Positions 45,688 through 63,039 of a stretch of DNA of 64,000 nt are shown in pieces (position 1 is the first letter of the stretch; each line of letters opens with the position of its first letter). Under the pieces are notes generated by a model. That model made no database searches. It was not told the DNA's origin and was given only the letters and a program-made list of their open reading frames with translations. Position numbers and translations under genes: made by a program. The stretch comes from Faecousia sp. (GTDB lineage Bacteria > Bacillota > Clostridia > Oscillospirales > Oscillospiraceae), in contig JBGVNV010000106.1 in assembly GCA_045125955.1 (NCBI GenBank), positions 667 to 64,666 on the forward strand. The letters are read 5' to 3'.

Positions 45688-46974
45688 TTACAGGCCGAAG
45701 AGCTTGCAGATAGCGGCCTCGTCCAGCTTGGAGCCGATGACGCACAGGCGGCCCATCACATCGGCAGAGCCGAAGCGGACGTTGTGTTCGCCGGGGACGA
45801 AGTCAAAGTGGATCCACTTGCCGTCCTCGCCGGCCACGATGCCCTTGGCGCGCAGAATGATGCCGTACTCGCCGGAATCAAACTCCTCCAGGATCTGGGC
45901 GATCTGATCGGCAGTGTACTTCCTGGCAGTCTCACGGCCCCAGGAGGTGAAGACCTCGTCGGCGTGGTGATGATGGTGATGATCATGGTCGTGGCAGCCG
46001 CAGGTGCACTCCTCACCGTGCTCATGATGGTGGTGATGCTCGTGGTCATGATGATGACCGCAGCCGCACTCCTCGCCGTGCTCGTGGTGGTGATGATGCT
46101 CATGCTCATGGTGGTCGTGACCACAGCAGCAATCTTCGCCATGCTCGTGATGGTGATGGTGCTCATGCTCGTGGTGGTCGTGACCGCAGCAGCACTCCTC
46201 ACCGTGCTCATGATGGTGCTCGTGATGGTCGTGACCACAGCAGCACTCCTCATCGTGCTCGTGGTGATGGTGATGCTCATGATGGTCATGGCCGCAACAG
46301 CAGTGCTCGTCATGGTCATGATGGTGGTGATGATGCTCGTGCTCGGTCTCCTCCATGTGCTTGGCCAGGGTGTGCTCGCCCTCGAAAGCGGCGATGAGCT
46401 GCTCAGCGGTCAGGTCCTCCCAGGGGGTGGTGACGATGGTGGCGTGGTCGTTGTGCTGGCGGATCAGCTCCAGAGCAGTATCCAGCTTCTTCTCAGAAAT
46501 GCCGGTGGTACGGGACAGGATGATGGTGGAGGCGGTCTCGATCTGGTTGTTGTAGAACTCACCGAAGTTCTTCATGTAGACCTTGACCTTGTTGGCGTCG
46601 GCCACAGCAACGGCGTAGCCCAGCTCCACATCATGGCCCACCACCTTCTTCACGGCACCGATGACGTCGGACAGCTTGCCAACGCCGGAGGGCTCGATGA
46701 TGACCCGGTCGGGGTGATACTCGGAGATGACCTTCTCCAGAGCCTTGCCGAAGTCGCCCACCAGGGAGCAGCAGATGCAGCCGGAATTCATCTCGGTGAT
46801 GTTGATGCCGGCATCCTGCAGAAAGCCGCCGTCAATGCCGATCTCGCCAAACTCGTTCTCGATGAGAACCAGTTTCTGGCCCTTGTAGCCCTCGGCGATC
46901 AACTTCTTGATGAGGGTGGTCTTGCCGGCTCCCAGGAAGCCGGAGTAGATGTCGATTTTAGTCATATTCTTCAT
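45688..46974 (-). CDS. COG0523 (CobW/ZigA-type) metallochaperone GTPase with a giant His/Cys-rich insert
   Basis: GFLGAGKTT (Walker A), GCICCS (CxCC) and IIEPSGV. Residues ~207-337 are almost entirely H, E, D, C and G. Confidence 0.85.
   Translation of the reverse strand: MKNMTKIDIYSGFLGAGKTTLIKKLIAEGYKGQKLVLIENEFGEIGIDGGFLQDAGINITEMNSGCICCSLVGDFGKALEKVISEYHPDRVIIEPSGVGKLSDVIGAVKKVVGHDVELGYAVAVADANKVKVYMKNFGEFYNNQIETASTIILSRTTGISEKKLDTALELIRQHNDHATIVTTPWEDLTAEQLIAAFEGEHTLAKHMEETEHEHHHHHHDHDEHCCCGHDHHEHHHHHEHDEECCCGHDHHEHHHEHGEECCCGHDHHEHEHHHHHEHGEDCCCGHDHHEHEHHHHHEHGEECGCGHHHDHEHHHHHEHGEECTCGCHDHDHHHHHHADEVFTSWGRETARKYTADQIAQILEEFDSGEYGIILRAKGIVAGEDGKWIHFDFVPGEHNVRFGSADVMGRLCVIGSKLDEAAICKLFGL
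45964..46356 (-). repeat. in-frame tandem coding repeats (about 6 units of HEHGEECCCGHDHHEHEHHHH)
   Basis: Periodic 60-66-nt units are visible in the DNA and the translation. They also generate the spurious alternative-frame ORFs 45756..46319 and 45523..47001. Confidence 0.85.
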
Positions 46975-47170: not shown

Positions 47171-48832
47171 ATGCAGAAACAGAAAACCGCGGCACGCAAT
47201 TATGCCATCATCGCAGCTGTTCTGATGGCAGTCGCCTTTTTGCTGCGCGAAATTTACGAGGACCTGCCCAATGCCATGCTCCAGAGTATTATGTGCCTGA
47301 TCCGGGACACGATCCATATTTCCTTGCTGTTTTCCTGGGTGGTATCCGTACAGCGAAGGCTGGTCAACAGGAATGTCCGGCGGCTGATGCTGATGGTGGG
47401 CTGTCTGCTGCTGTTCTGGCTCGTTGACAAGATCGTCAAGTGGGATTTTACCGGCAGTGTGACCCATCCGCTGGTGCGGTACCTGTGGTACGGTTTCTAT
47501 GTGGGAATGCTGTTTGTCCCCACTCTGGGTGCCTTCATCATCAACTACCTGGGAAAGCCCGAGGACTATTCCCACCCGAAGAAGCTGAACTACCTGCTGA
47601 TCCCACCTACGGTGATGCTGATCGCGGTCTTCACCAACGATCTGCACCAGAAGGTCTTTGTGTTCTACAATGGCTTTATCAACTTTGATCTGGAATATGG
47701 CTATGACTGGGTGTACTACATCGTCATGGGCTGGTTCATCGTCATGGGCTTCTATTTTGTGGTGATGATGCTGGTGAAGAGCCGGGTCCCCGGCAGCCGG
47801 AAGCTCCAGAAGATGCCCGTGGCCATCATGACCTTTGCGGCGTTCTTCTGGCTGGGGTACAGTATGCGGCTGTACAACTGCGACCTGACCATCATGGACT
47901 GCCTGATCATCGTGCTTTTGCTGGAAAGTGCCATTCAGAGCGGTCTGCTGCCGTCCAACACCCGGTATCAGGAGGTCTTCGACAGCACCACCGTCCCGGT
48001 GCAGATCGTGGATCGGGATTATCAGCCCCATTATGTGTCCGGTGCCGCTCTGCCGGTGTCTGAAGCGCAGATGCGCCAATCGGCAGTGGGCACCGTGGAT
48101 CTGGGCGACGCGCTTCTGAGCAGCGCGCCCATCAATGCAGGCCATGTGGTGTGGCAGAACGACATTACCAAGCTCAATGAGCTGCGCTCCCGGCTTCAGA
48201 GTACCCTGGAACAGCTGGGCGAGGAAAATACCCTTTTGCAGGCGGAGCTGGAGCTGAAGGAGAAACGGGCCAAGGCGGACGAACAGAACCGCCTGTACGA
48301 CCGGATCGCCAGCGAAGTGGAGCCGCAGCTCATCAAGGCGGAGCAGCTGCTTCACCGGATCGAGCAGGAGCCGGAGAACAACCGAAATCTGCTGGCAAAG
48401 CTCTGTGTGCTGGGTTCCTTTATCAAACGCCGGGGCAACCTGCTTCTGCTGGGGGAGGAGAACGGCGTGATCCAGGCAAGAGAATTGGAATACTGCATCC
48501 GGGAATCGATGGACAATCTGAATCTGTCCGGTGTGTTCACTTCCTTCAGCAGCCGCTGTGATGGGCAGCTGCAGCTGAAATCCATTGTGGCGGCCTATGA
48601 CTTCTATGAGCAGCTGGTGGAGCGGTTCCTGGACGAAATGGCAGCCATGATGGTCAATCTGTCCTGTACAAAGGGCAAGATCCGCATGAACATTCAGATG
48701 GGCTGCACCGGAGAGATCACCCAGCAGGTGCTGGAGGATCTGGAGCTGCCCCTTGGGCGCGTTACTTATGAGATCATGGATGAGGACATCGTCCTGGATC
48801 TGACCATTACGGAAGGAGGCGGCGAAGCATGA
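47171..48832 (+). CDS. 7-8 TM sensor with a degenerate histidine-kinase-like C-terminus (pseudo-kinase)
   Basis: Polytopic N-domain and a coiled coil. The DHp-like helix reads RIASEVEPQL (no His), and there are no clear G1/G2 boxes. ATGA overlap with the next gene. Confidence 0.7.
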   Translation: MQKQKTAARNYAIIAAVLMAVAFLLREIYEDLPNAMLQSIMCLIRDTIHISLLFSWVVSVQRRLVNRNVRRLMLMVGCLLLFWLVDKIVKWDFTGSVTHPLVRYLWYGFYVGMLFVPTLGAFIINYLGKPEDYSHPKKLNYLLIPPTVMLIAVFTNDLHQKVFVFYNGFINFDLEYGYDWVYYIVMGWFIVMGFYFVVMMLVKSRVPGSRKLQKMPVAIMTFAAFFWLGYSMRLYNCDLTIMDCLIIVLLLESAIQSGLLPSNTRYQEVFDSTTVPVQIVDRDYQPHYVSGAALPVSEAQMRQSAVGTVDLGDALLSSAPINAGHVVWQNDITKLNELRSRLQSTLEQLGEENTLLQAELELKEKRAKADEQNRLYDRIASEVEPQLIKAEQLLHRIEQEPENNRNLLAKLCVLGSFIKRRGNLLLLGEENGVIQARELEYCIRESMDNLNLSGVFTSFSSRCDGQLQLKSIVAAYDFYEQLVERFLDEMAAMMVNLSCTKGKIRMNIQMGCTGEITQQVLEDLELPLGRVTYEIMDEDIVLDLTITEGGGEA

Positions 48833-50097
48833 TGCTCTATTCTCAGCTTTCCATTCCCGGAAAATCTGCCGTCATCCTGAGCCTTTTCCTGGCGGTGTGC
48901 ATCGGCGGCTGTCTGATCGGTGCTGTCCTTCGGCACAAGGGAATCGTGCATAAGATCCTGCTTCCTGCGAGTGTTTTGTTGATTGCGGTGCCGATGATCG
49001 TCTACACGGGGGAAGCCAGAGCGAATCTGCGTTCGCTCGAAGTGCCGGCGGTCTCGAGGTGGTTCTGCTCCCAGCCGGTGCTGCTGCCTGTGGGGCTGTT
49101 GCTGCCGATTCTTTTGTATTACGGATATTTGTGGTATGAGGATTGGCAGTTCCGCAAAACGACCATCACCCGTTCCTCCATTAAGGAGGGCGTGGATAAG
49201 ATCGCTTCCGGTCTGTGCTTCTATATGACCGGCGGCAGAGTGATCCTGGCCAACAGCTGTATGAACGATCTGAGCCACCGGATCGTGGGCCAGGACCTGC
49301 AGAATGCGGAAGCGTTTTGGCAGAGCCTCAGCGGAGGCGAGGTACTGCCCGGTGTGGAGCGCATTTCCTTTGGCGTGTATCCCAATTTCCGCCTGAGCGA
49401 CGGCAGCGTGTGGACCTTTTCCAGGGAAGAACTGGATGGCTTTATTCAGCTGACCGCTGCGGATACGACGCTCCAGCAGAATCTGACCGACGAGCTTCGG
49501 GATAAAAATCTGGATCTGGCGGCGCTGAATCTGCGTCTGCGCCGATACAGTGAGAATGTGGATGAACTGACACGGGAAAAAGAACGCCTGGAAACAAAAG
49601 TGCGCATCCACGGTGAATTGGGACAGGCACTGCTGGCGGTCCGGCGTTATCTGGTGGATCAGAGCCAGCAGGCACCGCCGCTGAACATCTGGCGCAATAA
49701 TATCGCCATGCTCCGCAAGGAGATGGTGGAAAACAAGTCCGAGGATCCGCTGCGGATCCTTCAGAAGGCTGCAAAGTCTGCCAGTGTCATGCTCTGTATC
49801 CGGGGACAGCTTCCACAGAAGCCGGAGTACCGTCGGTTCTTCCTGGTGGCCGCATCGGAGGCACTGACCAACGCCGTGTTCCACGCAGGCGCACGAACGC
49901 TCACGGTCGAGCTGACTGAGACGGAGGATCATTGGAGGATGTGCTTTACCAATGACGGCTCCAGGCCGGAGAAGACCGTCACCGAAGGCGGCGGTCTGGG
50001 TTCCCTCCGACGCAAGGCAGAGAGCATCGGTGCAGCTATGCAGGTTCTGAGCGAGAGCGAATTTGCGCTCATCATCACGGGACGAAAGGGGTGTTAA
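48829..50097 (+). CDS. membrane sensor histidine kinase (HisKA_3-like)
   Basis: H-box VRIHGELGQAL, N-box EALTNAVFHA, and TNDG/GGGLGSL G-boxes. Confidence 0.8.
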   Translation: MMLYSQLSIPGKSAVILSLFLAVCIGGCLIGAVLRHKGIVHKILLPASVLLIAVPMIVYTGEARANLRSLEVPAVSRWFCSQPVLLPVGLLLPILLYYGYLWYEDWQFRKTTITRSSIKEGVDKIASGLCFYMTGGRVILANSCMNDLSHRIVGQDLQNAEAFWQSLSGGEVLPGVERISFGVYPNFRLSDGSVWTFSREELDGFIQLTAADTTLQQNLTDELRDKNLDLAALNLRLRRYSENVDELTREKERLETKVRIHGELGQALLAVRRYLVDQSQQAPPLNIWRNNIAMLRKEMVENKSEDPLRILQKAAKSASVMLCIRGQLPQKPEYRRFFLVAASEALTNAVFHAGARTLTVELTETEDHWRMCFTNDGSRPEKTVTEGGGLGSLRRKAESIGAAMQVLSESEFALIITGRKGC

Positions 50098-50100
50098 GAG

Positions 50101-50730
50101 ATGATCAAAGTCATGATCGTGGAGGACGATCCCATGGCTCAGAAGCTGCTGGAGATCTTCGTCAGCGAAACCGGGAGATTCGAGGTGGCCCATGCCATCG
50201 AAAGTGCCGCAATGGCGGAATTTTACTGCATGACCCATCCCATTGACCTGATCCTGATGGATGTCTGCACCGCCATGAATGTCAGCGGTCTGGAAGCTGC
50301 CGAGAAGATCAAGAGCCGCTTTCCGCAGATCAAAGTCATTATCATCACCAGTCAGCCGGAGTGCAGCTTCCTTGACCGGGCCCGTGCCGCAGGCGTGGAG
50401 AGCTTCTGGTACAAGACGGCCTCCGCCGAGGAGATCCTGACCGTCATGGACAAAACCATGGCAGGGGAGCGGATCTATCCGGACAATACCCCCAGCCTGA
50501 AGCTGGGCGATGCGGCCAGTGAGAAATTTACCGACCGGGAGCTGGAGGTGCTGCGGCTGGTGGTGGCGGGAGAGACCGATGCTGCCATTGCAGAAAAGCT
50601 TTTCCTGTCCGTGCGCACGGTAAAGCAGCACATCCAGTCCATGCGCGACAAGACCGGCTTCCGAAACCGCACGGAGCTGGCTGTCCGGGCCAGAGAAAGC
50701 GGCCTGGTCATCAACGATAAAACAGAATGA
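50101..50730 (+). CDS. NarL/LuxR-family response regulator
   Basis: Receiver (IVEDD, LILMDV, IIITS, WYKT) plus a LuxR helix-turn-helix (LTDRELEVLRLVVAGETDAAIAEKLFLSVRTVKQH). Confidence 0.9.
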   Translation: MIKVMIVEDDPMAQKLLEIFVSETGRFEVAHAIESAAMAEFYCMTHPIDLILMDVCTAMNVSGLEAAEKIKSRFPQIKVIIITSQPECSFLDRARAAGVESFWYKTASAEEILTVMDKTMAGERIYPDNTPSLKLGDAASEKFTDRELEVLRLVVAGETDAAIAEKLFLSVRTVKQHIQSMRDKTGFRNRTELAVRARESGLVINDKTE

Positions 50731-50743
50731 TCCCTGCACATAG

Positions 50744-50777
50744 GTGCCACCCGACCGGGTGGCACTTTTTGCGTTTT
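50744..50777 (+). terminator. intrinsic terminator after the response regulator
   Basis: gtgccaccc-gacc-gggtggcac followed by TTTTTGCGTTTT. Confidence 0.7.
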
Positions 50778-50880
50778 CAGTGAAAAGCATGCACGAAAGT
50801 ACGATGTGAAAAAATGGAAGAGCTGATAAAATGAACATGTAAAATACTCTTCGTGAGAATGGAAGATTGGAGGGATAGCC

Positions 50881-51267
50881 GTGCGAAAGATCGTTGTGAG
50901 CATCCAGAACGGCCTCCTGGCGGAGGCACTGACAAGCTTGCTGCAGCTTTCCGGCGAGTTCGAGCCATATCGTGCTGCGGTGGATAAAAACAAGCGGACG
51001 GTGAGTGCCTGTGTGGCCTGCCATGCAGATCTGGTGCTGATGGAGGTGACCCACACGGCCCACGCGAATCTGGAGGGAAGACTTCACGAGGGAGAGCAGA
51101 TCCGTCAGTTGGTCCCCGGCTGCAAGATCGTGCTGCTGTGTGACGAAAATGTATCCCCTGACATCGCCAGGGAAGTGGTGGCGGCGAAAAAATCCGGCCG
51201 GATCGATGCCTTCTACTATTCCTCCGTCACGGGAAAATATCTGGTGGCTGCGCTGTATGCGCTGTAA
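50881..51267 (+). CDS. aspartate-less receiver-like protein, paralogue 1
   Basis: Aligns with the adjacent true receiver. EDD becomes IQN, LILMDV becomes LVLMEV, and WYKT becomes YYSS. The GTG start follows GGAGGG. Confidence 0.65.
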   Translation: MRKIVVSIQNGLLAEALTSLLQLSGEFEPYRAAVDKNKRTVSACVACHADLVLMEVTHTAHANLEGRLHEGEQIRQLVPGCKIVLLCDENVSPDIAREVVAAKKSGRIDAFYYSSVTGKYLVAALYAL

Positions 51268-51282
51268 GGAGTGATTAAGAAC

Positions 51283-51555
51283 ATGCAAGGACCATTAAAG
51301 GATCATTTGGTGGAGCATCACGACGGGGAAGGGGTTTATTTTACCAGGACCTGCACCGTATGCGGCGCAGTCTGGAAGAGTGCTGCCCGCCCGGGCCTGG
51401 ATCGCAGTGCCGCCGGGGAGGAGGCCATCCGGCAGACCCATATTTGTCCGTTCTGCGGCAGAGCGGTATGCAAGGGCTGCTACACAGACGTGGATGGGAT
51501 CGCGCTTTGTGTCCGGTGCGCCGAACGGCTCACAGAGAGGATTGGGAAGCTATGA
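51283..51555 (+). CDS. Cys-rich (8 Cys) zinc-ribbon/B-box-like small protein
   Basis: CTVCG...CPFCGRAVCKGC...CVRC. An alternative GTG start exists at 51271. Confidence 0.55.
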   Translation: MQGPLKDHLVEHHDGEGVYFTRTCTVCGAVWKSAARPGLDRSAAGEEAIRQTHICPFCGRAVCKGCYTDVDGIALCVRCAERLTERIGKL

Positions 51556-51890
51556 AGCGGATTTATGTAAGCATTCACAACAGTCTGCTTTCGGCAGCGA
51601 TCATCCGAAGCCTGGAGGGCCAGGGTGAATTTTCCGTTGTTGGCACGGTGGAGGGTGCGGATATCGTGCTGATGGAAGCCTGCTATGGGGCAGGGGCCAG
51701 CCTGGACGAGTGCCTGGAGAAGGTAAAGTCCCTGGGTCCCGGATGTGCAGTGGTGATGCTCTGCGATGAAAATTCCGCACCGGGGGTCGCACGACGGGTG
51801 GTCCAGGCCAAGAAAGACGGTCTGATCGACGACTTTGTCTATTCCTCCGTCAGCGAGACGTACCTGACAGCATTGCTGTCTGCACTGTAA
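51552..51890 (+). CDS. aspartate-less receiver-like protein, paralogue 2
   Basis: About 40% identical to paralogue 1 by eye: VSIHNSLL, DIVLMEA, MLCDENS and VYSSVS. ATGA overlap with the Cys-rich gene. Confidence 0.65.
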   Translation: MKRIYVSIHNSLLSAAIIRSLEGQGEFSVVGTVEGADIVLMEACYGAGASLDECLEKVKSLGPGCAVVMLCDENSAPGVARRVVQAKKDGLIDDFVYSSVSETYLTALLSAL

Positions 51891-51905
51891 AAAGGAGGCA
51901 TGTAT

Positions 51906-53447
51906 ATGAAAAAAAGAATTGCTGCGCTGGCTCTTTCGGGAGCATTGCTGCTGAGCGGCTGCGGCGGCGGAGCAGCCCCGGACGGGACCACCGTCCTCAC
52001 CGAACCCCCGGTCCACACCACCGCTCCCACGGAAACCACGGCCCCCGTGCAGACCGTTCCCCCGGAGACGGAGCCGGTCATCGCGGACGATGCCCTGAGC
52101 CTGCTCCGGGCGGACATGAAGCCCCACATGGCGGCTCTGGGCTATTTGGGCTATTGCGATCTGGAAAAATACGATTCTCCCATGTCGTATCTGCAGGGCG
52201 AGTTCCCCAACTACCTGGCCTCCAACGCCTACCTGTCCGGGATCGATAAGGTCTACGGCAATTACGGCAGCCTCTACTGCGTGGTCCCGAAAGACCCCGA
52301 TGCAAGGGTCACCGTCAACCATGTGAAGTTCGAGGGCGAGTACCCCTACGAGCATCTCCAAACCATCGAAGCCGATGCCCCCGGCGAGCCCTTCTTTGTG
52401 CTGTGCATCGTGGATGAGGAGACGCTGCTGGAGGTCATCATCACCGAACCCGATGGACGGACTCTGCGCTGGTATCCCACCATTTCCGAGCTTTACTGCA
52501 AGGGGACCCGGCTGACCTCCTCCTATCTGGTGGCGGACTACGGTCCCTACGAGGATCTCCCGGAGGCGGATCCCGCCAACGCGGACAAGGCCCTGGATGC
52601 CCTCCGGGCGGATATGGTTGTGCCCGTCGCGGCCCGGGCCATGCTTGACCACTGGGACGAGATGTCCGGCAAGGACCCCATCGAATATGCCCGTGAGATC
52701 TATCCCAAGTTTTTTGCCGAAAATGCGTTCCTGGCGGAGGCGCAGAAATGCTATGGCGGAAGCGGCAGCATTTACTGCGTGGTGCCCCGGCTGCCTGATA
52801 CCGCTGTCACCGTGAATGTGGTCAGCACCGACGGTGAATATCCCTACCAAAAGCTGGAGAGCCTTGATTCCCATCCCAATGGTGAGCCCTTCTTCGTTCT
52901 GTCGGATCTGGACGAGACCAGAATGCTGGAGATCATCTTCACCGAGCCGGATGGTCGGACCCTTACCTGGTACCCCTACTGGAACGAGGTCCAGGGTGAT
53001 ACCAAGGTCGTGGCACCAGAGAGCCTGATGACGGGCATCTCGGCCCCCTCGGAGCGGACCTTCCGGGATACCCTGATGAGCTACGGCTGGGTCGTGCCGG
53101 AGCTGAGCCAGATCGACGGCACCTGCTGGGAATCCCGGTACTATAGCTACGGTCTGGATCTTTTCTCCGGCGGCGAGGCCATCCTCTATGACATCACCTA
53201 TGACGAGGATTTCAACTGCCTTTATTCCGTGGGCTACCGGGGTGTGTGGCTTTTCGACAACGGCTATCTGACCCTGACCATGCGCCCGGAGGAGGGCACC
53301 GACTACACTGCCTTTACGGGCACCTATCCGCTCCTGCTGGCCTCCTACGGCGAGCTTTGGATCGGTCGCAGCGAGGCCGACGGCACCGCACTGCCCTACA
53401 TCCCGGCGGGCTTCGAGGGTGACGATCTGTCACCCACTGTGGGCTGA
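51906..53447 (+). CDS. lipoprotein with an internal tandem domain duplication
   Basis: Lipobox LLLSGC. Residues ~63-193 and ~229-361 are clearly homologous (LRADM...YCVVP...VTVN...GEYPY...GEPFFVL...TEPDGRTL.WYP). Confidence 0.7.
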   Translation: MKKRIAALALSGALLLSGCGGGAAPDGTTVLTEPPVHTTAPTETTAPVQTVPPETEPVIADDALSLLRADMKPHMAALGYLGYCDLEKYDSPMSYLQGEFPNYLASNAYLSGIDKVYGNYGSLYCVVPKDPDARVTVNHVKFEGEYPYEHLQTIEADAPGEPFFVLCIVDEETLLEVIITEPDGRTLRWYPTISELYCKGTRLTSSYLVADYGPYEDLPEADPANADKALDALRADMVVPVAARAMLDHWDEMSGKDPIEYAREIYPKFFAENAFLAEAQKCYGGSGSIYCVVPRLPDTAVTVNVVSTDGEYPYQKLESLDSHPNGEPFFVLSDLDETRMLEIIFTEPDGRTLTWYPYWNEVQGDTKVVAPESLMTGISAPSERTFRDTLMSYGWVVPELSQIDGTCWESRYYSYGLDLFSGGEAILYDITYDEDFNCLYSVGYRGVWLFDNGYLTLTMRPEEGTDYTAFTGTYPLLLASYGELWIGRSEADGTALPYIPAGFEGDDLSPTVG

Positions 53448-53481
53448 GCAATTTTGAAAAAAAGAAAGAGGAGAATGAATT

Positions 53482-54897
53482 ATGGGTCTTATCAAAGCAA
53501 TCACCGGTGCCGTCGGCGGCGTTCTGGCGGATCAGTGGAAGGAGTTTTTCTACTGCGATGCGCTCGATTCCGACACCCTGATGGTCAAGGGCCAGAAGCG
53601 CGTTTCCGGCCGCAGCTCCAACACTAAGGGCAGCGAAAATGTTATCAGTAACGGCTCCGGCATCGCCGTGGCCGATGGCCAGTGCATGATCATTGTGGAT
53701 CAGGGCAAGATCGTGGAGTTCTGCGCCGAACCCGGTCAGTTTACCTACGACACCTCCACCGAGCCCAGCATCTTCACCGGCGACCTGGACGATGCCATCA
53801 TGGACACCTTCCAGGACATCGGCCGCCGCTTTACCTACGGCGGCGACACCGGCAAGGATCAGAGAGTTTATTATTTCAACACCAAGGAGATCATGGGCAA
53901 CAAGTTCGGCACCCCCAGCCCCATCATCTTCGAGGTCATGAACAAGCGTATCGGCTTCAGCCGGACCGTCAATGTCCGCTGCAACGGTGTCTATTCCTAC
54001 CACATCACCGACCCGCTGCTGTTCTATACCAAGGTCTGCGGCAATGTCAAGGACCGCTTCACCCGGGATATGATCGACGAGCAGCTGAAATCTGAGTTTA
54101 TCTCCGCCCTCCAGCCCGCCTTCGGTGCTCTGGCCGAGCAGGAGCTCCGCCCCGCCCAGCTTCCCGCCAAAGCCAATGAGCTGAAAAAGGCCATGAACGA
54201 TGCCCTGGCGGCGGATTGGGTCTCCCGCGGCATCACCGTCGCCAGCATTGCCCTGAATCCCATCACCCTCAACCCCGAGGACATGAAGAAGATCCAGCAG
54301 CTGGAGGATGCCGCATCCGTCGGCTCCAATCCCTTCATGATGGCGGGCCTCCAGGCCACCGCCACCGCCAATGCCATGGAGGCCGCGGCTTCCAATTCTG
54401 CCGGTGCCATGACGGGCTTCATGGGCATGAATATGGCAGGCTCCGCCATGGGCGGCGGCTTCAACAATGCCCAGCAGTTCTACCAGATGGGCATGCAGCA
54501 GCAGGCCCATCAGCAGGCAGCGGCTCCCGCCCCTGCCCAGAACGGCTGGAAGTGCGCCTGCGGTGCCACGGCAACCGGCAAGTTCTGCCCCGAGTGCGGC
54601 GCGAAGAAGCCCGAACCCCAGGCGGCAAATGGCTGGAAGTGCAGCTGCGGTGCCACCGCCACCGGAAAATTCTGCCCCGAATGCGGCAGCCCCAAGCCTG
54701 CGGACAACGGCAGCTGGTCCTGCTCCTGCGGTCAGCAGAACAAGGGCAAATTCTGCTCCAATTGTGGCAGCAAAAAGCCTGCCGGCGTTCCCCAGTACCG
54801 CTGCGACAAGTGCGGCTGGCAGCCCGCCGACCCCACCAAGGCACCCCGGTTCTGCCCCGAGTGCGGCGATCCCTTTGACAACGGCGACATCATCTGA
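53482..54897 (+). CDS. SPFH-domain (COG4260/YdjI-like) protein with a Q/A/M-rich linker and four C-terminal zinc ribbons
   Basis: The N-terminus MGLIKAITGAVGGVLADQWKEFFYCD is typical of COG4260 SPFH proteins. The C-terminus has 3x GWKCxCG..TGKFCPECG-type ribbons plus one CDKCG...CPECG. Confidence 0.85.
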   Translation: MGLIKAITGAVGGVLADQWKEFFYCDALDSDTLMVKGQKRVSGRSSNTKGSENVISNGSGIAVADGQCMIIVDQGKIVEFCAEPGQFTYDTSTEPSIFTGDLDDAIMDTFQDIGRRFTYGGDTGKDQRVYYFNTKEIMGNKFGTPSPIIFEVMNKRIGFSRTVNVRCNGVYSYHITDPLLFYTKVCGNVKDRFTRDMIDEQLKSEFISALQPAFGALAEQELRPAQLPAKANELKKAMNDALAADWVSRGITVASIALNPITLNPEDMKKIQQLEDAASVGSNPFMMAGLQATATANAMEAAASNSAGAMTGFMGMNMAGSAMGGGFNNAQQFYQMGMQQQAHQQAAAPAPAQNGWKCACGATATGKFCPECGAKKPEPQAANGWKCSCGATATGKFCPECGSPKPADNGSWSCSCGQQNKGKFCSNCGSKKPAGVPQYRCDKCGWQPADPTKAPRFCPECGDPFDNGDII

Positions 54898-54916
54898 GTT
54901 TTGAGGAGGTAAAAAT

Positions 54917-56113
54917 ATGGCTTTCTTCGGTAAATTATTTGAGAAAAAGGTCTGCGATCTCTGCGGCGGCGAGATCGGACTGCTGGGCAACAAGAAGCTG
55001 GAGGACGGCAACTGCTGCAAGGAGTGCGCCGGTAAGCTTTCCCCCTGGTTTGATGAGCGCAGACATTCCACCGTGGAGCAGATCCGGCGGCAGATTGCCG
55101 CCCGTGAGGAAAACCGGCAGAAGCTCCAGACCTGGAACCACGACATGGTCTTCGGCGAGTATCAGAAGCTCTATGTGAAATTCTCCGGCAGAATTCCCGA
55201 TTCCTTCGTGATCTCCTCCGCTTCCAATTACAAGGAGGCCAACGCCGATATTCTGCAGTTTGCCCATGTGTCCTCCTGCGATGCCGACATCCGGGAGTCC
55301 CACAAGGAGCTGAAGCAGAATAATGCCCAGGGTGAGGAGATCAGCTACAATCCGCCCCGGTATGAGTACAGCTACGAGTTCTATGTCAAGCTCATGATCA
55401 TGGGCTGCGAGTACATCGATGACATGCGCTTCCGCCTGAACCGCAATACCCTGAAGCTGCAGACCGTCCAGAGTCTGAACGGCAGAGGCCTGAAATTCAG
55501 CAGGGCCTTTGATCCCATGCAGTACCCCGAATACCGGGAGCTGAAAAGCGAGCTGGACACCGTCTGCCGGATCTTCTCCTGCGGCCAGCGGGGCATCCCC
55601 TACGAGGGCAATGCCGCCACCGGTGGCGACGGCATCCAGAACCTGCTGGAGCAGATCCGTACCGCTCCCGATCTGGAGACGGCCATGCAGCTCCAGGCAG
55701 CTCTGGCTCTGATGACCATTGCCAATCCCAATAAGGATCATATCAACGCCCAGGCCGCCCAGGCTCTGGCCCAGGTGAAGAACCGCTGTATGCAGGGCAA
55801 TGCAGGTGTCAATCGCCCTGCCGCACCTGCTGCTTCCGGTCAGTGGGTCTGCCAGAGCTGCGGCAGTCAGAACACCGGCAAATTCTGCTCCGGCTGCGGC
55901 AATCCCAGACCTGTTCCCGTCCAGCAGTCCGGCTGGAAGTGCTTCTGCGGCACCACCAACACCGGCCGCTTCTGCAATGAGTGCGGCACCACCCGCTTTG
56001 AGCCCCGTCAGATCTGGTGCAGCGAATGCAGCTGGACCATCGAGGAGGAGGGCCAGGTCCCCAAGTTCTGCCCCAACTGCGGCAAAAAATTCAACAATGA
56101 CGACATCCGATAA
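54917..56113 (+). CDS. DUF4428-type protein with three C-terminal zinc ribbons
   Basis: N-terminal CDLCGGEIGLLGNKKLEDGNCCKECAGKLSPWF matches the DUF4428 pattern. C-terminal ribbons: CQSCG..GKFCSGCG, CFCG..GRFCNECG and CSEC...CPNCG. Confidence 0.8.
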   Translation: MAFFGKLFEKKVCDLCGGEIGLLGNKKLEDGNCCKECAGKLSPWFDERRHSTVEQIRRQIAAREENRQKLQTWNHDMVFGEYQKLYVKFSGRIPDSFVISSASNYKEANADILQFAHVSSCDADIRESHKELKQNNAQGEEISYNPPRYEYSYEFYVKLMIMGCEYIDDMRFRLNRNTLKLQTVQSLNGRGLKFSRAFDPMQYPEYRELKSELDTVCRIFSCGQRGIPYEGNAATGGDGIQNLLEQIRTAPDLETAMQLQAALALMTIANPNKDHINAQAAQALAQVKNRCMQGNAGVNRPAAPAASGQWVCQSCGSQNTGKFCSGCGNPRPVPVQQSGWKCFCGTTNTGRFCNECGTTRFEPRQIWCSECSWTIEEEGQVPKFCPNCGKKFNNDDIR

Positions 56114-56136
56114 ACCCGGAAAAGGAGTGATACACG

Positions 56137-57207
56137 ATGTCCGTTTTACAGCAATTCAAATGCCCCTGCTGTGACGGTGCCATCGAGTTCGACAGCACCG
56201 TACAGAAGATGAAGTGCCCCTACTGCGGCACGGAATTTGACATGGAAGCCATCCAGCCCCAGGAAGAGCATGCCGATGAAATGACCTGGGATACCGCCGC
56301 AGGCGGCGAGTGGCTTGAGGGCGAGACCGAGGGCCTGCGGGTCTACACCTGCCAGACCTGCGGCGGCGAGATCGTGGCCGAAGGGACCACCGGTGCGACA
56401 GAATGTCCCTACTGCGGCAATCCCGTGGTGATGACCGGCCAGTTCGCGGGCGACCTGAAGCCCGATCTTGTCATCCCCTTCAAGCTGGATAAGAAGTCGG
56501 CAATCGCCAAGCTCCAGGAACTGTACAAGGGCAAGCTCCTGCTGCCCAGAGTCTTCAAGGATCGGAACCACATCAGGGAGGTCAAGGGCCTGTATGTCCC
56601 CGTGTGGCTCTTTGACACCGATGCCGATGCCCATGTGCGCTACAAGGCCTCCACGGTCCGCACCTGGAGCGACAGCGATTACAATTACACGGAGACCAGC
56701 TATTTTTCCGTGACCCGCGGCGGCTCCATCGGCTTTGCGGACGTTCCTGTGGACGGCTCCACCAAAATGGATGACACTCTGATGGAATCCATCGAGCCCT
56801 ATGACCTCTCCGCCGCCGTGGATTTCCAGACGGCCTACCTCTCCGGCTACCTGGCGGACAAGTACGATGTGGATGCAGAGGAGCGTGTCCAGAGGGCCAA
56901 CGAGCGCATCCGGCGCAGTACCGAGGAGGCCTTCGCCGCCACGGTCCAGGGCTACGCCACCGTGACCCCCACCGCCTCCTCCATCCGGCTGAACAACGGC
57001 AGAGCCCGATACGCCCTGCTGCCGGTGTGGATCCTGAACACCCAGTGGAACGGCCAGAAATTCACCTTCGCCATCAACGGTCAGACCGGCAAAATCGTGG
57101 GCGACCTGCCCGTGGACAAGGGTGCTTACAACAAGTGGCTCTTCGGCGTGGCCGGTGCGGTATCCGCGGCGGTGTTTGCCCTGAGCTATCTGCTCTGGCT
57201 GCTGTGA
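56137..57207 (+). CDS. YdjG-like double zinc-ribbon protein with a C-terminal TM anchor
   Basis: CPCCDG...CPYCG and CQTCGG...CPYCGN ribbons, with a TM segment WLFGVAGAVSAAVFALSYLLWLL. Confidence 0.7.
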   Translation: MSVLQQFKCPCCDGAIEFDSTVQKMKCPYCGTEFDMEAIQPQEEHADEMTWDTAAGGEWLEGETEGLRVYTCQTCGGEIVAEGTTGATECPYCGNPVVMTGQFAGDLKPDLVIPFKLDKKSAIAKLQELYKGKLLLPRVFKDRNHIREVKGLYVPVWLFDTDADAHVRYKASTVRTWSDSDYNYTETSYFSVTRGGSIGFADVPVDGSTKMDDTLMESIEPYDLSAAVDFQTAYLSGYLADKYDVDAEERVQRANERIRRSTEEAFAATVQGYATVTPTASSIRLNNGRARYALLPVWILNTQWNGQKFTFAINGQTGKIVGDLPVDKGAYNKWLFGVAGAVSAAVFALSYLLWLL

Positions 57208-57220
57208 GGAGGTGCTGAAC

Positions 57221-57970
57221 ATGAAGAAATTATTTTCCCTGCTGCTCGTCCTGGTTCTGGTTCTGAGCATGGCGGTTTCCGTTTCTGCGGCAACGGATGC
57301 CTTTGTTTACGACGATGCAGGACTCCTGACGGAAGGGGAGCGGGCGGACCTTGCAAACCGGCTGGCCCGGCTCAGCGATACATACAACGCCCAGATCGTG
57401 GTGGTCACGATCCCCTCGGCGGAGGGCAACGATCCGGACGCCATCGTGGAATATTTCTACGACAACATGGGCATCGGCTACGGCGAGAACCTGGACGGCG
57501 TTCTGCTGCTTGTCTGCATGGACCCCAGAGAGTACCGGATCCTCAGCAACGGCTACTGCGCTGCGGCCATTGATCCCGCCGACATCAATGCCATCGGCAG
57601 TGTCATTGTCAATGACCTGAGCGAAGGCGACTACGCCGACGCCTTCGATATCTTCGCCGAAAAGTGCGAGTATTATCTGGACGGCCACCTCAACGGCTTC
57701 TCCTTCAATTTCGGCATGAATCTGATGATCGCGCTGATGGTCGGCCTCGTTGCAGGCCTCATCACCGCCAAGAGCCTGAAGGGCCAGCTCAAGACCGTCC
57801 ACAAAAAGAACGAGGCCAAAAGCTACATCAAGGCCGGAAGCATGAATCTGCAAACCCAGAACGATGTGTTCCTGTACCGGGACGTCCGGCGCACCCCGAA
57901 GCCCAAAGAAACCAACACCCGCTCCTCCTCCGGCAGCTCCTCCCGGAGCGTCGGCGGCGGTTCCTTCTGA
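57221..57970 (+). CDS. TPM-domain (YdjH/YgcG-like) membrane protein
   Basis: Signal peptide, FVYDDAGLLT..E...L...L......AQIVVVT, a TM segment and a Ser/Gly tail ending GGGSF. ATG 57221 follows GAGGAGG. Confidence 0.85.
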   Translation: MKKLFSLLLVLVLVLSMAVSVSAATDAFVYDDAGLLTEGERADLANRLARLSDTYNAQIVVVTIPSAEGNDPDAIVEYFYDNMGIGYGENLDGVLLLVCMDPREYRILSNGYCAAAIDPADINAIGSVIVNDLSEGDYADAFDIFAEKCEYYLDGHLNGFSFNFGMNLMIALMVGLVAGLITAKSLKGQLKTVHKKNEAKSYIKAGSMNLQTQNDVFLYRDVRRTPKPKETNTRSSSGSSSRSVGGGSF

Positions 57971-57988
57971 CGAAAAGGAGAGAAAATT

Positions 57989-59827
57989 ATGAAAAGAATC
58001 ATCAGTTTATTGCTTTGCATGGTGTTGATGACTGTGCTGGCCGCGCCTGTGTCCGCCGCCAGCCCGGAGATCATCTTCACCGCCGACAGCGGCTTTACCC
58101 CCGGCTGTACCGTGACGGTGGACAAGGGTGAGACCCTCATGAGCTGCTACAACAACGGCACCTCTGACATCTACAACGCCTATCTGGAGGGCGATGTCCA
58201 GTATTACTGGATGCGAAACGATAGCTATTACGCCGACGGCCCCAGCATCACCATCCGGGAGGAGGACCGGGGCTGCTCCTTCTACTGCATGGCCGCCCTC
58301 TACGGCGATGAGGACCACATCCAGCAGATCGGCACCATTTACTCCGACTCCTTCTTTGTCCCCAACGACCTGGTGGAGCCTGAGATCCCGGTGATCACCA
58401 CCGAATCACTTCCCAACGCCGTGGTCGGTCAGGAGTACTACTTCAAGCTTGAATGCACCGACCCCGATGTACATTACTCCCTGTTCCGCAGCTCTTTGCC
58501 TGATGGCATGTACCTGACCCAGCACGGCGAGATCGAGGGTAACCCCACCGAGACGGGCTTCTGGTATGTGGTCATCATGGCCACCCCCGAGGCAGGAGAG
58601 GACTACGCCACCACCGCAGAATTCGAGTTCTATGTGGTGGAGGACGGCCCCGATTACACCCTGGAGATCATGCGCCTGCCCGACAAGCTGACCTATTATC
58701 TGGGCGAGAGCTTCGATATGACCGGCGCGTGGGTCCGCATCTGGACCCCCGAGGGCTACCTCGATTCCTTTGACGGCGAATATCTGGACTACTACACGGG
58801 TCCCCTGGAGAATCTGGGCGAGCGGCGGATCAAGCTCCGCTATATGGATGCCATGGAGATCATCTATATCGAAGTGGTGGAAGATCCCAATGCGGAATAT
58901 CATACCGTCACTTACTATCTGGGCGGCGACCTCTTTGAGGAGATGGAAGTCAGACACGGAGCATGCGCCGAGGATCTGCTGGTGCCCGAGGTGGAAGGCA
59001 TGGCTTTCACGGGCTGGCTTACCGAAGAGGGGGAATATTACGATTTCTCCGCACCCGTCACCGGGGATGTGGAAGTCTATGGTGCCTATGGCTATGTGGT
59101 GGCCCTCTGCTTCGGCATTGACAATCCCGTGGGCTGGCAGGTGGTGGAGCCGGGCAAGTGCGCCGTTGAGCCGGAGCCTCCCGCCCAGGAGGGCAAGGAG
59201 TTCCTGGGCTGGTATACGGAGTTCACCGGCGGCGTGAAGTTCGATTTCTCCACTCCCATCACCGGCAATATCAATCTGTATGCCCGGTTTGTGGATGCCA
59301 CTCCCTTCACCGATGTTCCCGTGGGCAGCTTCTATTATGAGCCCGTCATCTGGGCCCTGGAGAACGGTATCACCACCGGTGCCACCGCCACCACGTTCAA
59401 TCCCAACGGCCCCTGTCTGCGGGCCCATGTGGTCACCTTCCTGTGGCGTGCGGAGGGACAGCCTGCGCTGACCCATTACAATAACCCCTTCACCGATGTT
59501 CGCCCCAACGATTTCTTCTTCGTCCCCGTCCAGTGGGCGGTGGCGGAGGGAATCACCAACGGCACCTCTGCCACCACCTTCGGCTCCTATGACAACTGCA
59601 ACCGGGCCGCCGTCGTCACCTTCCTCTGGCGCGCCGCCGGTTGCCCGGAGCCCAAGGCAGTGAACAATCCCTTCGTGGATGTGAAGCCCACCGACTTCTT
59701 CTATAAGGCCGTCCTGTGGGCGGTGGAGTGCGGCATCACCAATGGCGTGGATGCCACCCACTTCGGCCCCACTGCCGGCTGCAACCGCGCCCAGGTGGTG
59801 ACCTTCCTGTACAGAGCCTACAACTGA
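57989..59827 (+). CDS. secreted multi-domain surface protein (Ig-like and Listeria-Bacteroides-type repeats) with 3 SLH-like C-terminal repeats
   Basis: Signal peptide, two GW(L/Y)TE..G..(Y/F)DFS.P(V/I)TG repeats, and three F.DV...F(F/Y)...V.WA.E.GIT.G...T.F...G.C.RA.VVTFL.RA units. Confidence 0.8.
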   Translation: MKRIISLLLCMVLMTVLAAPVSAASPEIIFTADSGFTPGCTVTVDKGETLMSCYNNGTSDIYNAYLEGDVQYYWMRNDSYYADGPSITIREEDRGCSFYCMAALYGDEDHIQQIGTIYSDSFFVPNDLVEPEIPVITTESLPNAVVGQEYYFKLECTDPDVHYSLFRSSLPDGMYLTQHGEIEGNPTETGFWYVVIMATPEAGEDYATTAEFEFYVVEDGPDYTLEIMRLPDKLTYYLGESFDMTGAWVRIWTPEGYLDSFDGEYLDYYTGPLENLGERRIKLRYMDAMEIIYIEVVEDPNAEYHTVTYYLGGDLFEEMEVRHGACAEDLLVPEVEGMAFTGWLTEEGEYYDFSAPVTGDVEVYGAYGYVVALCFGIDNPVGWQVVEPGKCAVEPEPPAQEGKEFLGWYTEFTGGVKFDFSTPITGNINLYARFVDATPFTDVPVGSFYYEPVIWALENGITTGATATTFNPNGPCLRAHVVTFLWRAEGQPALTHYNNPFTDVRPNDFFFVPVQWAVAEGITNGTSATTFGSYDNCNRAAVVTFLWRAAGCPEPKAVNNPFVDVKPTDFFYKAVLWAVECGITNGVDATHFGPTAGCNRAQVVTFLYRAYN

Positions 59828-59860
59828 CAGCAGACAGGGGGATGCTCCTGCTTCCCCAGT

Positions 59861-59972
59861 TGTCATCCTGAGCGAGCAAAGCGAGTCGAAGGATCTGCGC
59901 ATCGATTATGGTGCTGAGGTTCCGGAAGTGCGAAGATTCTTCGACTCCGCTGACGCTCCGCTCAGAATGACA
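59861..59972. mobile_element. MITE-like palindromic element between the two SLH genes
   Basis: Arms 59861-59895 (tgtcatcctgagcgagcaaagcgagtcgaaggatc) and 59935-59972 (reverse complement tgtcattctgagcggagcgtcagcggagtcgaagaatc) form an imperfect 35-38-nt inverted repeat. Confidence 0.55.
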
Positions 59973-60017
59973 GATCTGTGAGCCAGTACAAAAAATCAAA
60001 ACAAGGAGGAAAAAACA

Positions 60018-62974: not shown

Positions 62975-63000
62975 GCAGCCGCCCGGAATCGGGCGGCTGC
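62975..63000 (+). terminator. 10-bp perfect GC hairpin after the SLH gene (poor T tail)
   Basis: gcagccgccc-ggaatc-gggcggctgc. Confidence 0.4.
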
Positions 63001-63039
63001 TTCCGGGCCGGTGCCGTTGGTCCCGACTTTTTCCCGGAT

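Follow-up and report, generated by a model that had tools for sequence, protein, structure and literature searches.

The three-component Lia and Vra systems, which respond to cell-envelope stress in Firmicutes, act by driving a membrane-protective operon from a palindromic site. A different set of membrane proteins is known from Bacillus subtilis, where YdjG, YdjH and YdjI (SamGHI) form a stress-induced membrane complex that recruits PspA (PMC8581546). The architectures of YdjI, YdjG and YdjH have been published; YdjG has two N-terminal zinc ribbons, a central NTF2-like domain and a transmembrane segment (PMC11237479). Loss of SamI unbalances SamG-SamH and leads to constitutive stress signalling by a route not identified (bioRxiv 10.64898/2026.02.06.704340). 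Here we analyse a 64,000-nucleotide stretch of Faecousia sp. DNA, hereafter the window (assembly GCA_045125955.1, contig JBGVNV010000106.1, positions 667 to 64,666), in which nine genes (g1 to g9) combine a YdjGHI-like module with pseudo-receivers and exported proteins, directly downstream of three sensor genes (u1 to u3). Our favoured explanation, to which we give a probability of about 0.68, is that g1-g9 are the target operon of this sensor trio and that the two together form an envelope-stress and surface-remodelling regulon. The conserved core appears to consist of the sensor module, a promoter box, a stand-alone pseudo-receiver and a YdjGHI/SamGHI-like module without PspA.

The sensor module, the promoter box and the operon

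The features are listed here by position in the window.

47171..48832 (+): u1, seven-transmembrane sensor protein with a degenerate kinase core (Pfam HisKA_7TM, E 3e-9; seven hydrophobic segments)
48829..50097 (+): u2, membrane histidine kinase with three transmembrane segments, a HisKA_3-like DHp and an ATP-binding domain
50101..50730 (+): u3, NarL/LuxR-type response regulator with Asp54 in its REC domain and a GerE helix-turn-helix (HTH) (Pfam Response_reg 2e-15, GerE 2.4e-15)
50742..50777 (+): intrinsic terminator at the end of the sensor operon, an 11-bp stem with 7 G-C pairs and a 4-nt loop (50742-50767), with a T-run
50791..50806 (+): operator-like box GCACGAAAGTACGATG, a 4-4-4 inverted repeat plus GATG, overlapping the -35 position
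50824..50832 (+): extended -10 element TGATAAAAT, read from the sequence, its hexamer beginning 20 nt after the box
50881..51267 (+): g1, stand-alone pseudo-receiver of 128 amino acids (aa), the leader gene of the operon, with REC homology and fold and Glu55 at the phospho-site
51283..51555 (+): g2, small protein with eight Cys in four CxxC motifs; its open reading frame (ORF) opens at GTG 51271, and the likely start is ATG 51283
51552..51890 (+): g3, second pseudo-receiver paralogue, 112 aa, its start overlapping the g2 stop by 4 nt
51906..53447 (+): g4, lipoprotein whose sequence is duplicated internally in tandem, with a signal peptide and a lipobox (LLSGC)
53482..54897 (+): g5, cytosolic SPFH protein, YdjI/SamI-like (Pfam PF13421 Band_7_1, E 9e-19), with C-terminal zinc ribbons
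54917..56113 (+): g6, DUF4428 zinc-ribbon protein (Pfam DUF4428, E 2e-14, plus zinc ribbons), with no transmembrane segment
56137..57207 (+): g7, YdjG/SamG-like, with two N-terminal zinc ribbons, a central domain and a C-terminal transmembrane anchor
57221..57970 (+): g8, YdjH/SamH-like, with a signal peptide, an extracytoplasmic TPM domain, a transmembrane segment and a Ser/Gly-rich tail
57989..59827 (+): g9, secreted wall-anchored protein with a signal peptide, two Flg_new repeats and three SLH domains
59861..59972 (+): nested inverted-repeat element closing the operon, with arm pairs of 14 nt and 19 nt

Related loci, referred to below by L numbers, were collected by a one-genome-per-species scan with an alignment of 13 pseudo-receiver sequences, a 64-sequence alignment being too diverse. 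The scan returned 60 loci, all from Clostridia or related Bacillota. Fifty-seven species-level loci, on contigs that are incomplete, were compared by tblastn with the window proteins; they span Oscillospiraceae, Acutalibacteraceae, Lachnospiraceae, Anaerovoracaceae, Christensenellales, Tissierellia and others. The nearest relatives of the window are Oscillospiraceae-type metagenome-assembled genomes such as Faecousia and Limivicinus. Two or more genes of the sensor trio are present in 29 of the 36 loci that have at least 4.5 kb of upstream sequence, usually directly upstream of the pseudo-receiver gene on the same strand and in divergent orientation in L041, L046 and L048. The preliminary description of this DNA had remarked that the operon lies directly downstream of a seven-transmembrane pseudo-kinase/histidine kinase/LuxR module, and this link proves to be real and conserved in related loci. 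The unit had been drawn there as nine genes, which is too narrow: the functional unit also takes in the upstream sensor genes and the promoter box.

The promoter has a poor -35 element, whose position the box overlaps; this layout is typical of activator-dependent promoters. Its pattern was obtained from aligned upstream regions of pseudo-receiver genes and comprises a short inverted repeat with a 4-nt spacer, GATG, and a TATAAT-like hexamer 20 nt on; this 20-nt spacing between box and -10 element is retained in the window, L012, L016 and L047. Within the 64-kb window the box is single-copy, even with up to three mismatches allowed. In a strict pattern search, which overlooks the variants of other lineages, 31 of 55 species-level loci had a box 50-175 nt ahead of the pseudo-receiver gene against 0.39 expected, an enrichment of about 80-fold at one specific position. 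The palindromic character of the box is preserved while its sequence changes between lineages, and its half-sites co-vary with the recognition helix of the regulator, as follows.

GTAC/GCAC...GTAC: recognition helix S(V/L)RTVK
CATAC...GTAG: recognition helix SVATVK
AGCCA...TGGCT: recognition helix SVATVK, on a different scaffold
GGCCA...GGCC: recognition helix SVG(S/T)VK or SVSSVK
CCTAC...GTAGG: recognition helix SPNTVRDY (SANTVRDY in L057)
CCTTC...GAAGG: recognition helix SRFTVRDY

Metagenome loci hold other variants, GTCCTCA...TGAGGAC and CACTGGCA...TGCCAGTG. The case for a single regulon that takes in both the pseudo-receiver unit and the SPFH module is strongest in genomes in which the SPFH unit is separate and has a box of its own. 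L013 has three boxes, one before a DUF6935-SPFH-DUF4428-zinc ribbon (ZnR)-TPM unit, one before the pseudo-receiver gene and one before a divergent gene, and L043 has two, before SPFH-ZnR-TPM and before pseudo-receiver-DUF5067. Extra boxes are found ahead of a small c15-c12-DUF6935 unit in L017 and L026.

Two other roles for the palindrome were considered. A role as an RNA hairpin was rejected, the palindrome having arms of just 4-7 bp and lying ahead of the -10 element. As no second copy of the box is present in the window, there is no support for its use in autoregulation of the sensor operon. A literature search on the LiaR "7-4-7" repeat returned nothing relevant, and we therefore claim no likeness to the LiaR box. 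The stretch from box to -10 element (50791-50832) had been taken in the preliminary description for merely part of an AT-rich gap.

In the sensor module, the u1 stop codon overlaps the u2 start by 4 nt (ATGA). Comparison of 33 homologues showed that u1 has no conserved His and no N or G boxes, and its C-terminal half is distantly co-linear with the DHp and CA region of u2 (hhalign 66.7% probability, E 5e-5). By these sequence features u1 is a pseudo-kinase. A literature search on HisKA_7TM found nothing relevant. u2 keeps His261, the N box (EaLtNavfHA) and the G boxes, as judged from 30 homologues; its matches to HATPase domains, in Pfam and to DevS, DosT and VraS in the PDB, are weak. The nearest solved structure to u3 is VraR (E 7.6e-23, full length), and the next is DesR.

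Nine + strand ORFs were confirmed at 50881-59827, with the coordinates given before, each preceded by an AGGAG/GGAGG-type Shine-Dalgarno sequence. With the starts first proposed, the junctions from g1 to g9 measure 3, -4, 9, 34, 19, 23, 4 and 18 nt. We prefer downstream starts for g2 (ATG 51283, 90 aa), g4 (ATG 51906, 513 aa) and g8 (ATG 57221, 249 aa), because the earlier ones overlap or abut the Shine-Dalgarno sequence; the junction range of -4 to +34 nt is unchanged. Gene calls made independently on contigs nearly identical to this one put g2 at 90 or 81 aa and g4 at 513 aa. The gap at 50778-50880 has 39% G+C, compared with 60% across the operon, and most related loci have a hairpin with a T-run at the equivalent place ahead of the box. 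No terminator-like hairpins were found between genes g1 to g9, the + strand matches in 50881-59827 being weak 5-7-bp stems in coding sequence, and no Rfam match was obtained in 50600-60100. The earlier picture, in which tightly packed genes with ribosome-binding sites follow a strong terminator and an AT-rich gap and run without a terminator to a palindromic element past 59827, is borne out at each of these points; on these signals, g1-g9 are a real, tightly packed operon.

Three long antisense ORFs of 498-840 aa, at 48766-51288 (-) (840 aa), 53314-55146 (-) and 58406-59902 (-), overlap real genes and were discarded as artefacts of the high G+C content. Such ORFs had been picked in this GC-rich DNA by a length-greedy ORF caller, and a composition-scored caller, itself crude, was used in its place; because this caller overlooks some small genes, gene counts in the related loci were taken from tblastn. 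The closing element at 59861-59972, between g9 and the next SLH gene, has a folding energy of -78.9 kcal/mol (z = -5.9) and forms a long hairpin without a T-tail. It looks like an extragenic palindrome of the repetitive extragenic palindromic (REP) or miniature inverted-repeat transposable element (MITE) type, and elsewhere in the window it has only degenerate partial matches.

Pseudo-receivers, the SPFH module and the exported proteins

The g1 and g3 products are 45% identical (E 1e-30). g1 can be aligned with the receiver domain of u3, where its LMEV lies opposite the LMDV of the regulator, and Glu replaces the phospho-Asp in both paralogues (Glu55 in g1, within LMEV; LMEA in g3). A Glu in this position is known as a phosphomimetic substitution. 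The wider family, gathered by a library search, forms 273 clusters at 50% identity; most members stand alone and are about 128 aa long, and 64 representatives were used for the family profile and residue counts. At the phospho-site these have Glu in 45 cases, Asp in 13 and another residue in 6. The acidic pair is gone, I/M-Q-N standing opposite E-D-D of the regulators; C-D stands opposite the regulator T-S, and the position of the regulator Lys is held by S, A, T or G, never by Lys. The family has motifs of its own, LCDEN, in which D88 is invariant, and IDxFxYxS. Motifs in beta4 and in beta5-alpha5 are common to the pseudo-receivers and the cognate receiver, and the pseudo-receivers have no DNA-binding domain. 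Compared with the REC domains of the cognate regulators, the family profile gave an hhalign probability of 97.2% (E 3.6e-11, 117 columns), and its best solved match is the VraR receiver domain.

The AlphaFold2 (AF2) model of g1 has a mean predicted local distance difference test (pLDDT) score of 90.8 and a (beta-alpha)5 fold with E-H-E-H-E-H-E-H-E-H topology. Its top Foldseek matches are all receiver domains (NarL, DesR, VraR, PhoB and CheY, TM-score 0.70-0.77), and the FrzS receiver and a PhoB D53E structure are also among the matches. No Pfam or NCBIfam model matches g1 or covers its family, and no Pfam model matches g3; NCBIfam supplied no informative names. The two proteins had been described as aspartate-less receiver paralogues. 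The REC fold, the Glu in place of Asp, the lost acidic pocket and the missing Lys agree with this, and by homology and the predicted fold the g1/g3 family is one of genuine pseudo-receivers, previously undescribed.

Between the two lies g2, whose eight Cys are invariant among the proteins that follow the pseudo-receiver in three diverged lineages. These share the pattern CxxC...CxxC-x4-CxxC-x9-12-CxxC at 24-34% identity, and g2 probably has two zinc sites. Its Pfam matches, to zinc-ribbon, RING-like and double zinc ribbon (DZR) families, are all sub-threshold. A single-sequence AF2 model was moderately confident (pLDDT 78), and Foldseek gave no significant fold match, the best (E 0.55) being partial and to FYVE-like, LIM and RNA polymerase zinc ribbons. 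The label "B-box-like" given to g2 in the preliminary description must be dropped, since neither a B-box Pfam match nor a significant structural neighbour was found.

The g5-g8 genes encode the SPFH module. g5 has no transmembrane segment and has five CxxC motifs in its C-terminal part. The g5 and g6 products end in a common zinc-ribbon cassette (GWKCxCG...GKFCxxCG; about 42% identity over 102 aa; 54547-54891 and 55805-56107), which suggests a shared binding partner or membrane-targeting device. A DUF4428 accessory gene is also present in L013, L028, L029, L039, L042 and L065 and in many metagenome loci. g7 has four CxxC motifs in residues 9-93, with weak zinc-ribbon matches in Pfam, and a transmembrane segment at 338-356. 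g8 matches TPM_phosphatase (PF04536, E 1e-25) and TPM domains in the PDB (E 1e-10), its hydrophobic segments span residues 7-25 and 163-181, and its tail is of low complexity. PDB sequence searches with g5 and g7 were uninformative. PspA was sought in three ways: no Pfam match to PspA/IM30 was found among the nine genes; an E. coli PspA query, a weak test, found no match in the window; and inspection of the genes immediately upstream of ten stand-alone SPFH modules revealed no PspA-like neighbour. Of the earlier comparison of this trio with B. subtilis ydjGHI, the domain architecture stands, for g7 by its zinc ribbons and C-terminal transmembrane segment, but the PspA that characterises the B. 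subtilis setting is missing.

The exported proteins g4 and g9 are of another kind. The two halves of g4 are 49% identical over 137 aa (E 2e-45), so that the duplication seen earlier in the lipoprotein is confirmed, as are the three SLH domains of the surface protein g9 (Pfam SLH 1e-19, Flg_new 1e-18). g4 has no Pfam or NCBIfam match; by tblastn, its full-length homologues are restricted to close relatives, with a weak partial match in L013, and those of g9 are found solely in the nearest relatives, L010 and L011. Both would be lineage-specific exported cargo. Across the related loci, a crude signal-peptide heuristic marks 78 of 101 non-core genes in same-strand runs led by a pseudo-receiver as encoding exported proteins, compared with 44 of 153 elsewhere in the same loci (Fisher p = 2.6e-14, indicative only, as the loci share ancestry). 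One or more such genes are present in the pseudo-receiver-led run of 36 of 39 loci. The mix of lipoproteins and surface giants thus recurs as a gene class and not as families. The envelope-stress or surface-remodelling role first put forward as a candidate would fit this strong enrichment.

After the operon comes a second giant secreted SLH protein of 981 aa (60018-62963 (+)), with no box upstream. Its triple-SLH C-terminal anchor is 74% identical to that of g9, and strong convergent terminators follow at 62975-63023. The gene is probably a separate unit that arose from duplication of the anchor. Ahead of the sensor genes, 45688-46974 (-) encodes a CobW/HypB/UreG-type GTPase whose insert, about 120 residues long, comprises about five tandem His/Cys-rich units (HDHHEHEHHHHHEHGEECCCG). 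Beside it, at 44736-45677 (-), lies the gene for another CobW-like protein, which has a DUF1980_C domain, and the pair are probably Zn or Ni chaperones. In this part of the window the composition-scored ORF caller wrongly called the antisense strand.

Gene linkage in related loci and competing explanations

In nearly all loci the pseudo-receiver gene opens its unit, and what follows it varies. The next gene encodes the 8-Cys protein in the window and in L010, L014, L015, L028-31, L034 and L037. In some loci it encodes a lipoprotein of one of several unrelated families, DUF5067 included, and in others a peptidoglycan-binding protein, a giant secreted protein (BspA-type leucine-rich repeat (LRR), dockerin-bearing or pectate-lyase-like) or DUF6935; in L036 and L020 it is SPFH or ZnR directly. 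At least one SPFH-module gene is present in 19 of the 57 loci, and at least two lie within 10 kb in 8 of the 16 loci that have at least 8 kb on both sides. The module lies downstream in the window, L028, L029 and L039, upstream in L013, L043, L061 and L065, and is split in L027, and its internal order varies. A reverse scan from the SPFH domain, on metagenome contigs mostly from the human gut, found the SPFH-ZnR-TPM trio almost always intact. With at least 5 kb upstream (n = 41), 13 of these SPFH-anchored loci have a pseudo-receiver, 13 at least two sensor genes and 17 either. The preliminary description had allowed that these genes might never co-occur outside this genome; they do so across several families of Clostridia, in varying order. 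The link between pseudo-receiver and SPFH module is frequent, not obligatory or universal.

Two observations from these loci stand apart. Compact pseudo-receiver-SPFH-ZnR-TPM units without adjacent sensor genes occur at L078:9537-, L121:9534- and L146:9333-, the box being kept in L078 and L146; such units imply either control in trans or a pseudo-receiver function linked to the SPFH module itself. DUF6935, a protein of about 190 aa, recurs in 14 species-level loci, often beside SPFH or the pseudo-receiver (L013:2738-3316, L027:10415-10993, L039:7006-), and in many metagenome loci; it has no tblastn match in the window, and a literature search on it gave nothing relevant.

According to the explanation we favour, u1, translationally coupled to u2, and u2 would detect an envelope or membrane signal and phosphorylate the VraR/LiaR-like u3. 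A u3 dimer would then bind the box at 50791-50806, at an otherwise weak promoter, and g1-g9 would be transcribed as one unit. The g5 protein, the anchors g7 and g8 and the accessory g6 may assemble at the membrane, by analogy with SamGHI, and stabilise or monitor it without PspA, while g4 and g9 would be delivered as lineage-variable exported cargo. g1 and g3, as non-phosphorylatable copies of the u3 receiver domain, may serve as a decoy or connector that feeds back on the pathway, either through pairing with that receiver or through docking on the kinase, and g2 may take part, because g1, g2 and g3 are tightly coupled. We lean towards negative feedback by a decoy, because a g1:u3 heterodimer, with only one HTH, should bind the palindrome poorly; docking of g1/g3 on the kinase is equally possible.

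Several points weigh against this account. That u3 binds the box is a prediction, and the co-variation of half-sites and recognition helix is confounded by phylogeny. A promoter-like match in the g4-g5 gap (TTGAAA, 18 nt, AATTAT; 53454-53483) makes a separate promoter for the SPFH part possible. Roughly half of the pseudo-receiver loci with full flanks lack an SPFH module within 10 kb, and most SPFH modules of this clade, 24 of 41, have neither a pseudo-receiver nor sensor genes nearby and stand beside unrelated genes. In the close relative L010 (10001-17178) and in L011, with g1 at 86% identity, the operon keeps its lipoprotein, ZnR, TPM and SLH genes and lacks SPFH and DUF4428. The orthology of g5, g7 and g8 to YdjI, YdjG and YdjH is putative, being drawn from Pfam families and published architecture, and the feedback role of the pseudo-receivers is pure conjecture. 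As a separate observation on L010 and L011, the ZnR gene appears 5'-shortened (339 aa) and the TPM gene encodes 563 aa, as in a recent deletion or fusion variant of the operon.

In an unlikely alternative, the best placed of those we considered, the pseudo-receiver and SPFH/ZnR/TPM are a signalling device of their own: the complex would sense damage, and the pseudo-receiver would modulate a kinase or regulator encoded nearby or elsewhere. g1 and g3 would then be functional members of the SPFH module and more than feedback regulators of the sensor system. The pseudo-receiver does stand directly before SPFH-ZnR-TPM, both with sensor genes (L076, L077, L110, L115) and without adjacent ones (L078, L121, L146), and directly after TPM in L065 and L066. 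Also in its favour are the SamG-SamH imbalance and constitutive stress signalling that follow SamI loss in B. subtilis. Against it, an SPFH module is missing within 10 kb of many pseudo-receiver operons, and it is the receiver domain of the adjacent regulator that the pseudo-receiver most closely resembles.

More doubtful still is that all nine proteins are obligate parts of one fixed multi-protein envelope machine. The tight packing, with some overlapping or near-abutting junctions, and the recurrence of lipoproteins and giant surface proteins as classes in homologous operons would suit such a machine. Yet homologues of g4 and g9 are confined to the nearest relatives, and elsewhere unrelated lipoproteins (DUF5067 and others), BspA-type LRR giants, and dockerin or peptidoglycan-binding proteins take those positions. 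Gene sets differ already at 79-86% g1 identity: at 86% they are those of L010 and L011, and in a relative at 79% two pseudo-receivers are followed by transglutaminase-like and zinc-ribbon genes. The preliminary notion of a fixed nine-gene system does not survive this comparison.

An anti-phage defence or other conflict system built on membrane SPFH and zinc-ribbon proteins is very improbable. It could appeal to DUF4428, which is the N-terminal domain in some homologues of the membrane nuclease SNIPE, and to restriction-modification and Fic genes upstream in the relative L010. Against this, a search of ten proteins with PADLOC models returned no match save one 15.7-bit fragment, Pfam gave no nuclease, NTPase or toxin domain, the neighbours are exported structural proteins, and the characterised homologue works in membrane stress. 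Least credible of all is a chance juxtaposition, with the box as the site of another regulator or an unrelated promoter element: the tie between u3 and the box is one we infer and its co-variation could reflect shared ancestry, but the box is about 80-fold above expectation at one specific position, keeps its palindromic character as its sequence changes, and marks pseudo-receiver and SPFH units within one genome, and synteny persists across families despite rearrangements.

We also put forward, as a tentative proposal and a rather unlikely one, that the pseudo-receiver is the missing signalling link of SamGHI-type complexes. The complex would sense membrane damage and tune the pseudo-kinase/kinase/LuxR relay through the pseudo-receiver, and in some lineages through the 8-Cys protein. 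If true, the relay would control both the complex itself and variable surface proteins, in a self-contained circuit from membrane state to surface remodelling that is widespread in gut Clostridia.

As for the favoured regulon, SPFH/YdjGHI modules are widespread, and the locus offers a concrete, testable link between them and gene regulation in abundant, poorly studied gut Clostridia. Its lineage-specific operator variants make the regulon computationally predictable. It would couple membrane maintenance to the export of adhesin-like, SLH, LRR and dockerin surface proteins and, if confirmed, would explain surface change under envelope stress (bile, antimicrobial peptides, phage). Confirmation would also establish a new mode of two-component feedback, by a decoy copy of the regulator's own receiver domain.

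Comparison with known systems

Much of the locus is already known in kind: the SPFH trio (YdjGHI/SamGHI), a sensor of the LiaRS/VraSR/DesKR kind, and pseudo-receivers as a phenomenon. The combination of a sensor trio, a variable box, a leader pseudo-receiver, a PspA-less SamGHI-like/DUF4428 module and exported cargo was not found in the searchable literature, in keeping with the initial statement that no described system has this composition.

As atypical receivers, g1 and its relatives resemble FrzS, KaiA and others in having the (beta-alpha)5 fold with non-canonical active-site residues. Unlike these, g1 stands alone, at about 128 aa, and lacks an output domain; it derives from the cognate NarL-type receiver, and its gene comes first in the presumed target operon of that regulator.

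With LiaFSR-liaIH and VraTSR the locus shares a regulator closest to VraR, a HisKA_3-like kinase with a small membrane domain, a third membrane protein encoded alongside, and, as its presumed output, a membrane-protective operon with a palindromic site at its promoter. The accessory protein here is a HisKA_7TM degenerate kinase, in contrast to the LiaF/VraT type, and the sensor genes lie upstream of the box behind a terminator and are not obviously autoregulated. Whereas the Lia target, liaIH, encodes a PspA homologue, the target here comprises pseudo-receivers, exported proteins and an SPFH module with no PspA homologue, and it opens with a pseudo-receiver.

B. subtilis pspA-ydjGHI (samGHI) has the same three architectures: a Band_7_1 SPFH protein with zinc ribbons, a two-ribbon transmembrane protein, and a TPM protein with a low-complexity tail. 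Its function is in the envelope and membrane stress response (PMC8581546; bioRxiv 10.64898/2026.02.06.704340). The present locus differs in having no pspA (the ESCRT-III homologue) in the operon or in the related loci examined, in its gene order, I-(DUF4428)-G-H as against G-H-I, with the DUF4428 protein as an extra, and in its control, apparently by the box of a two-component regulator and not by sigma-W. Moreover, the module here stands in one operon with pseudo-receivers and exported cargo. Set beside these systems, the locus is best read as a variant envelope-stress two-component regulon that contains an undescribed family of pseudo-receivers.

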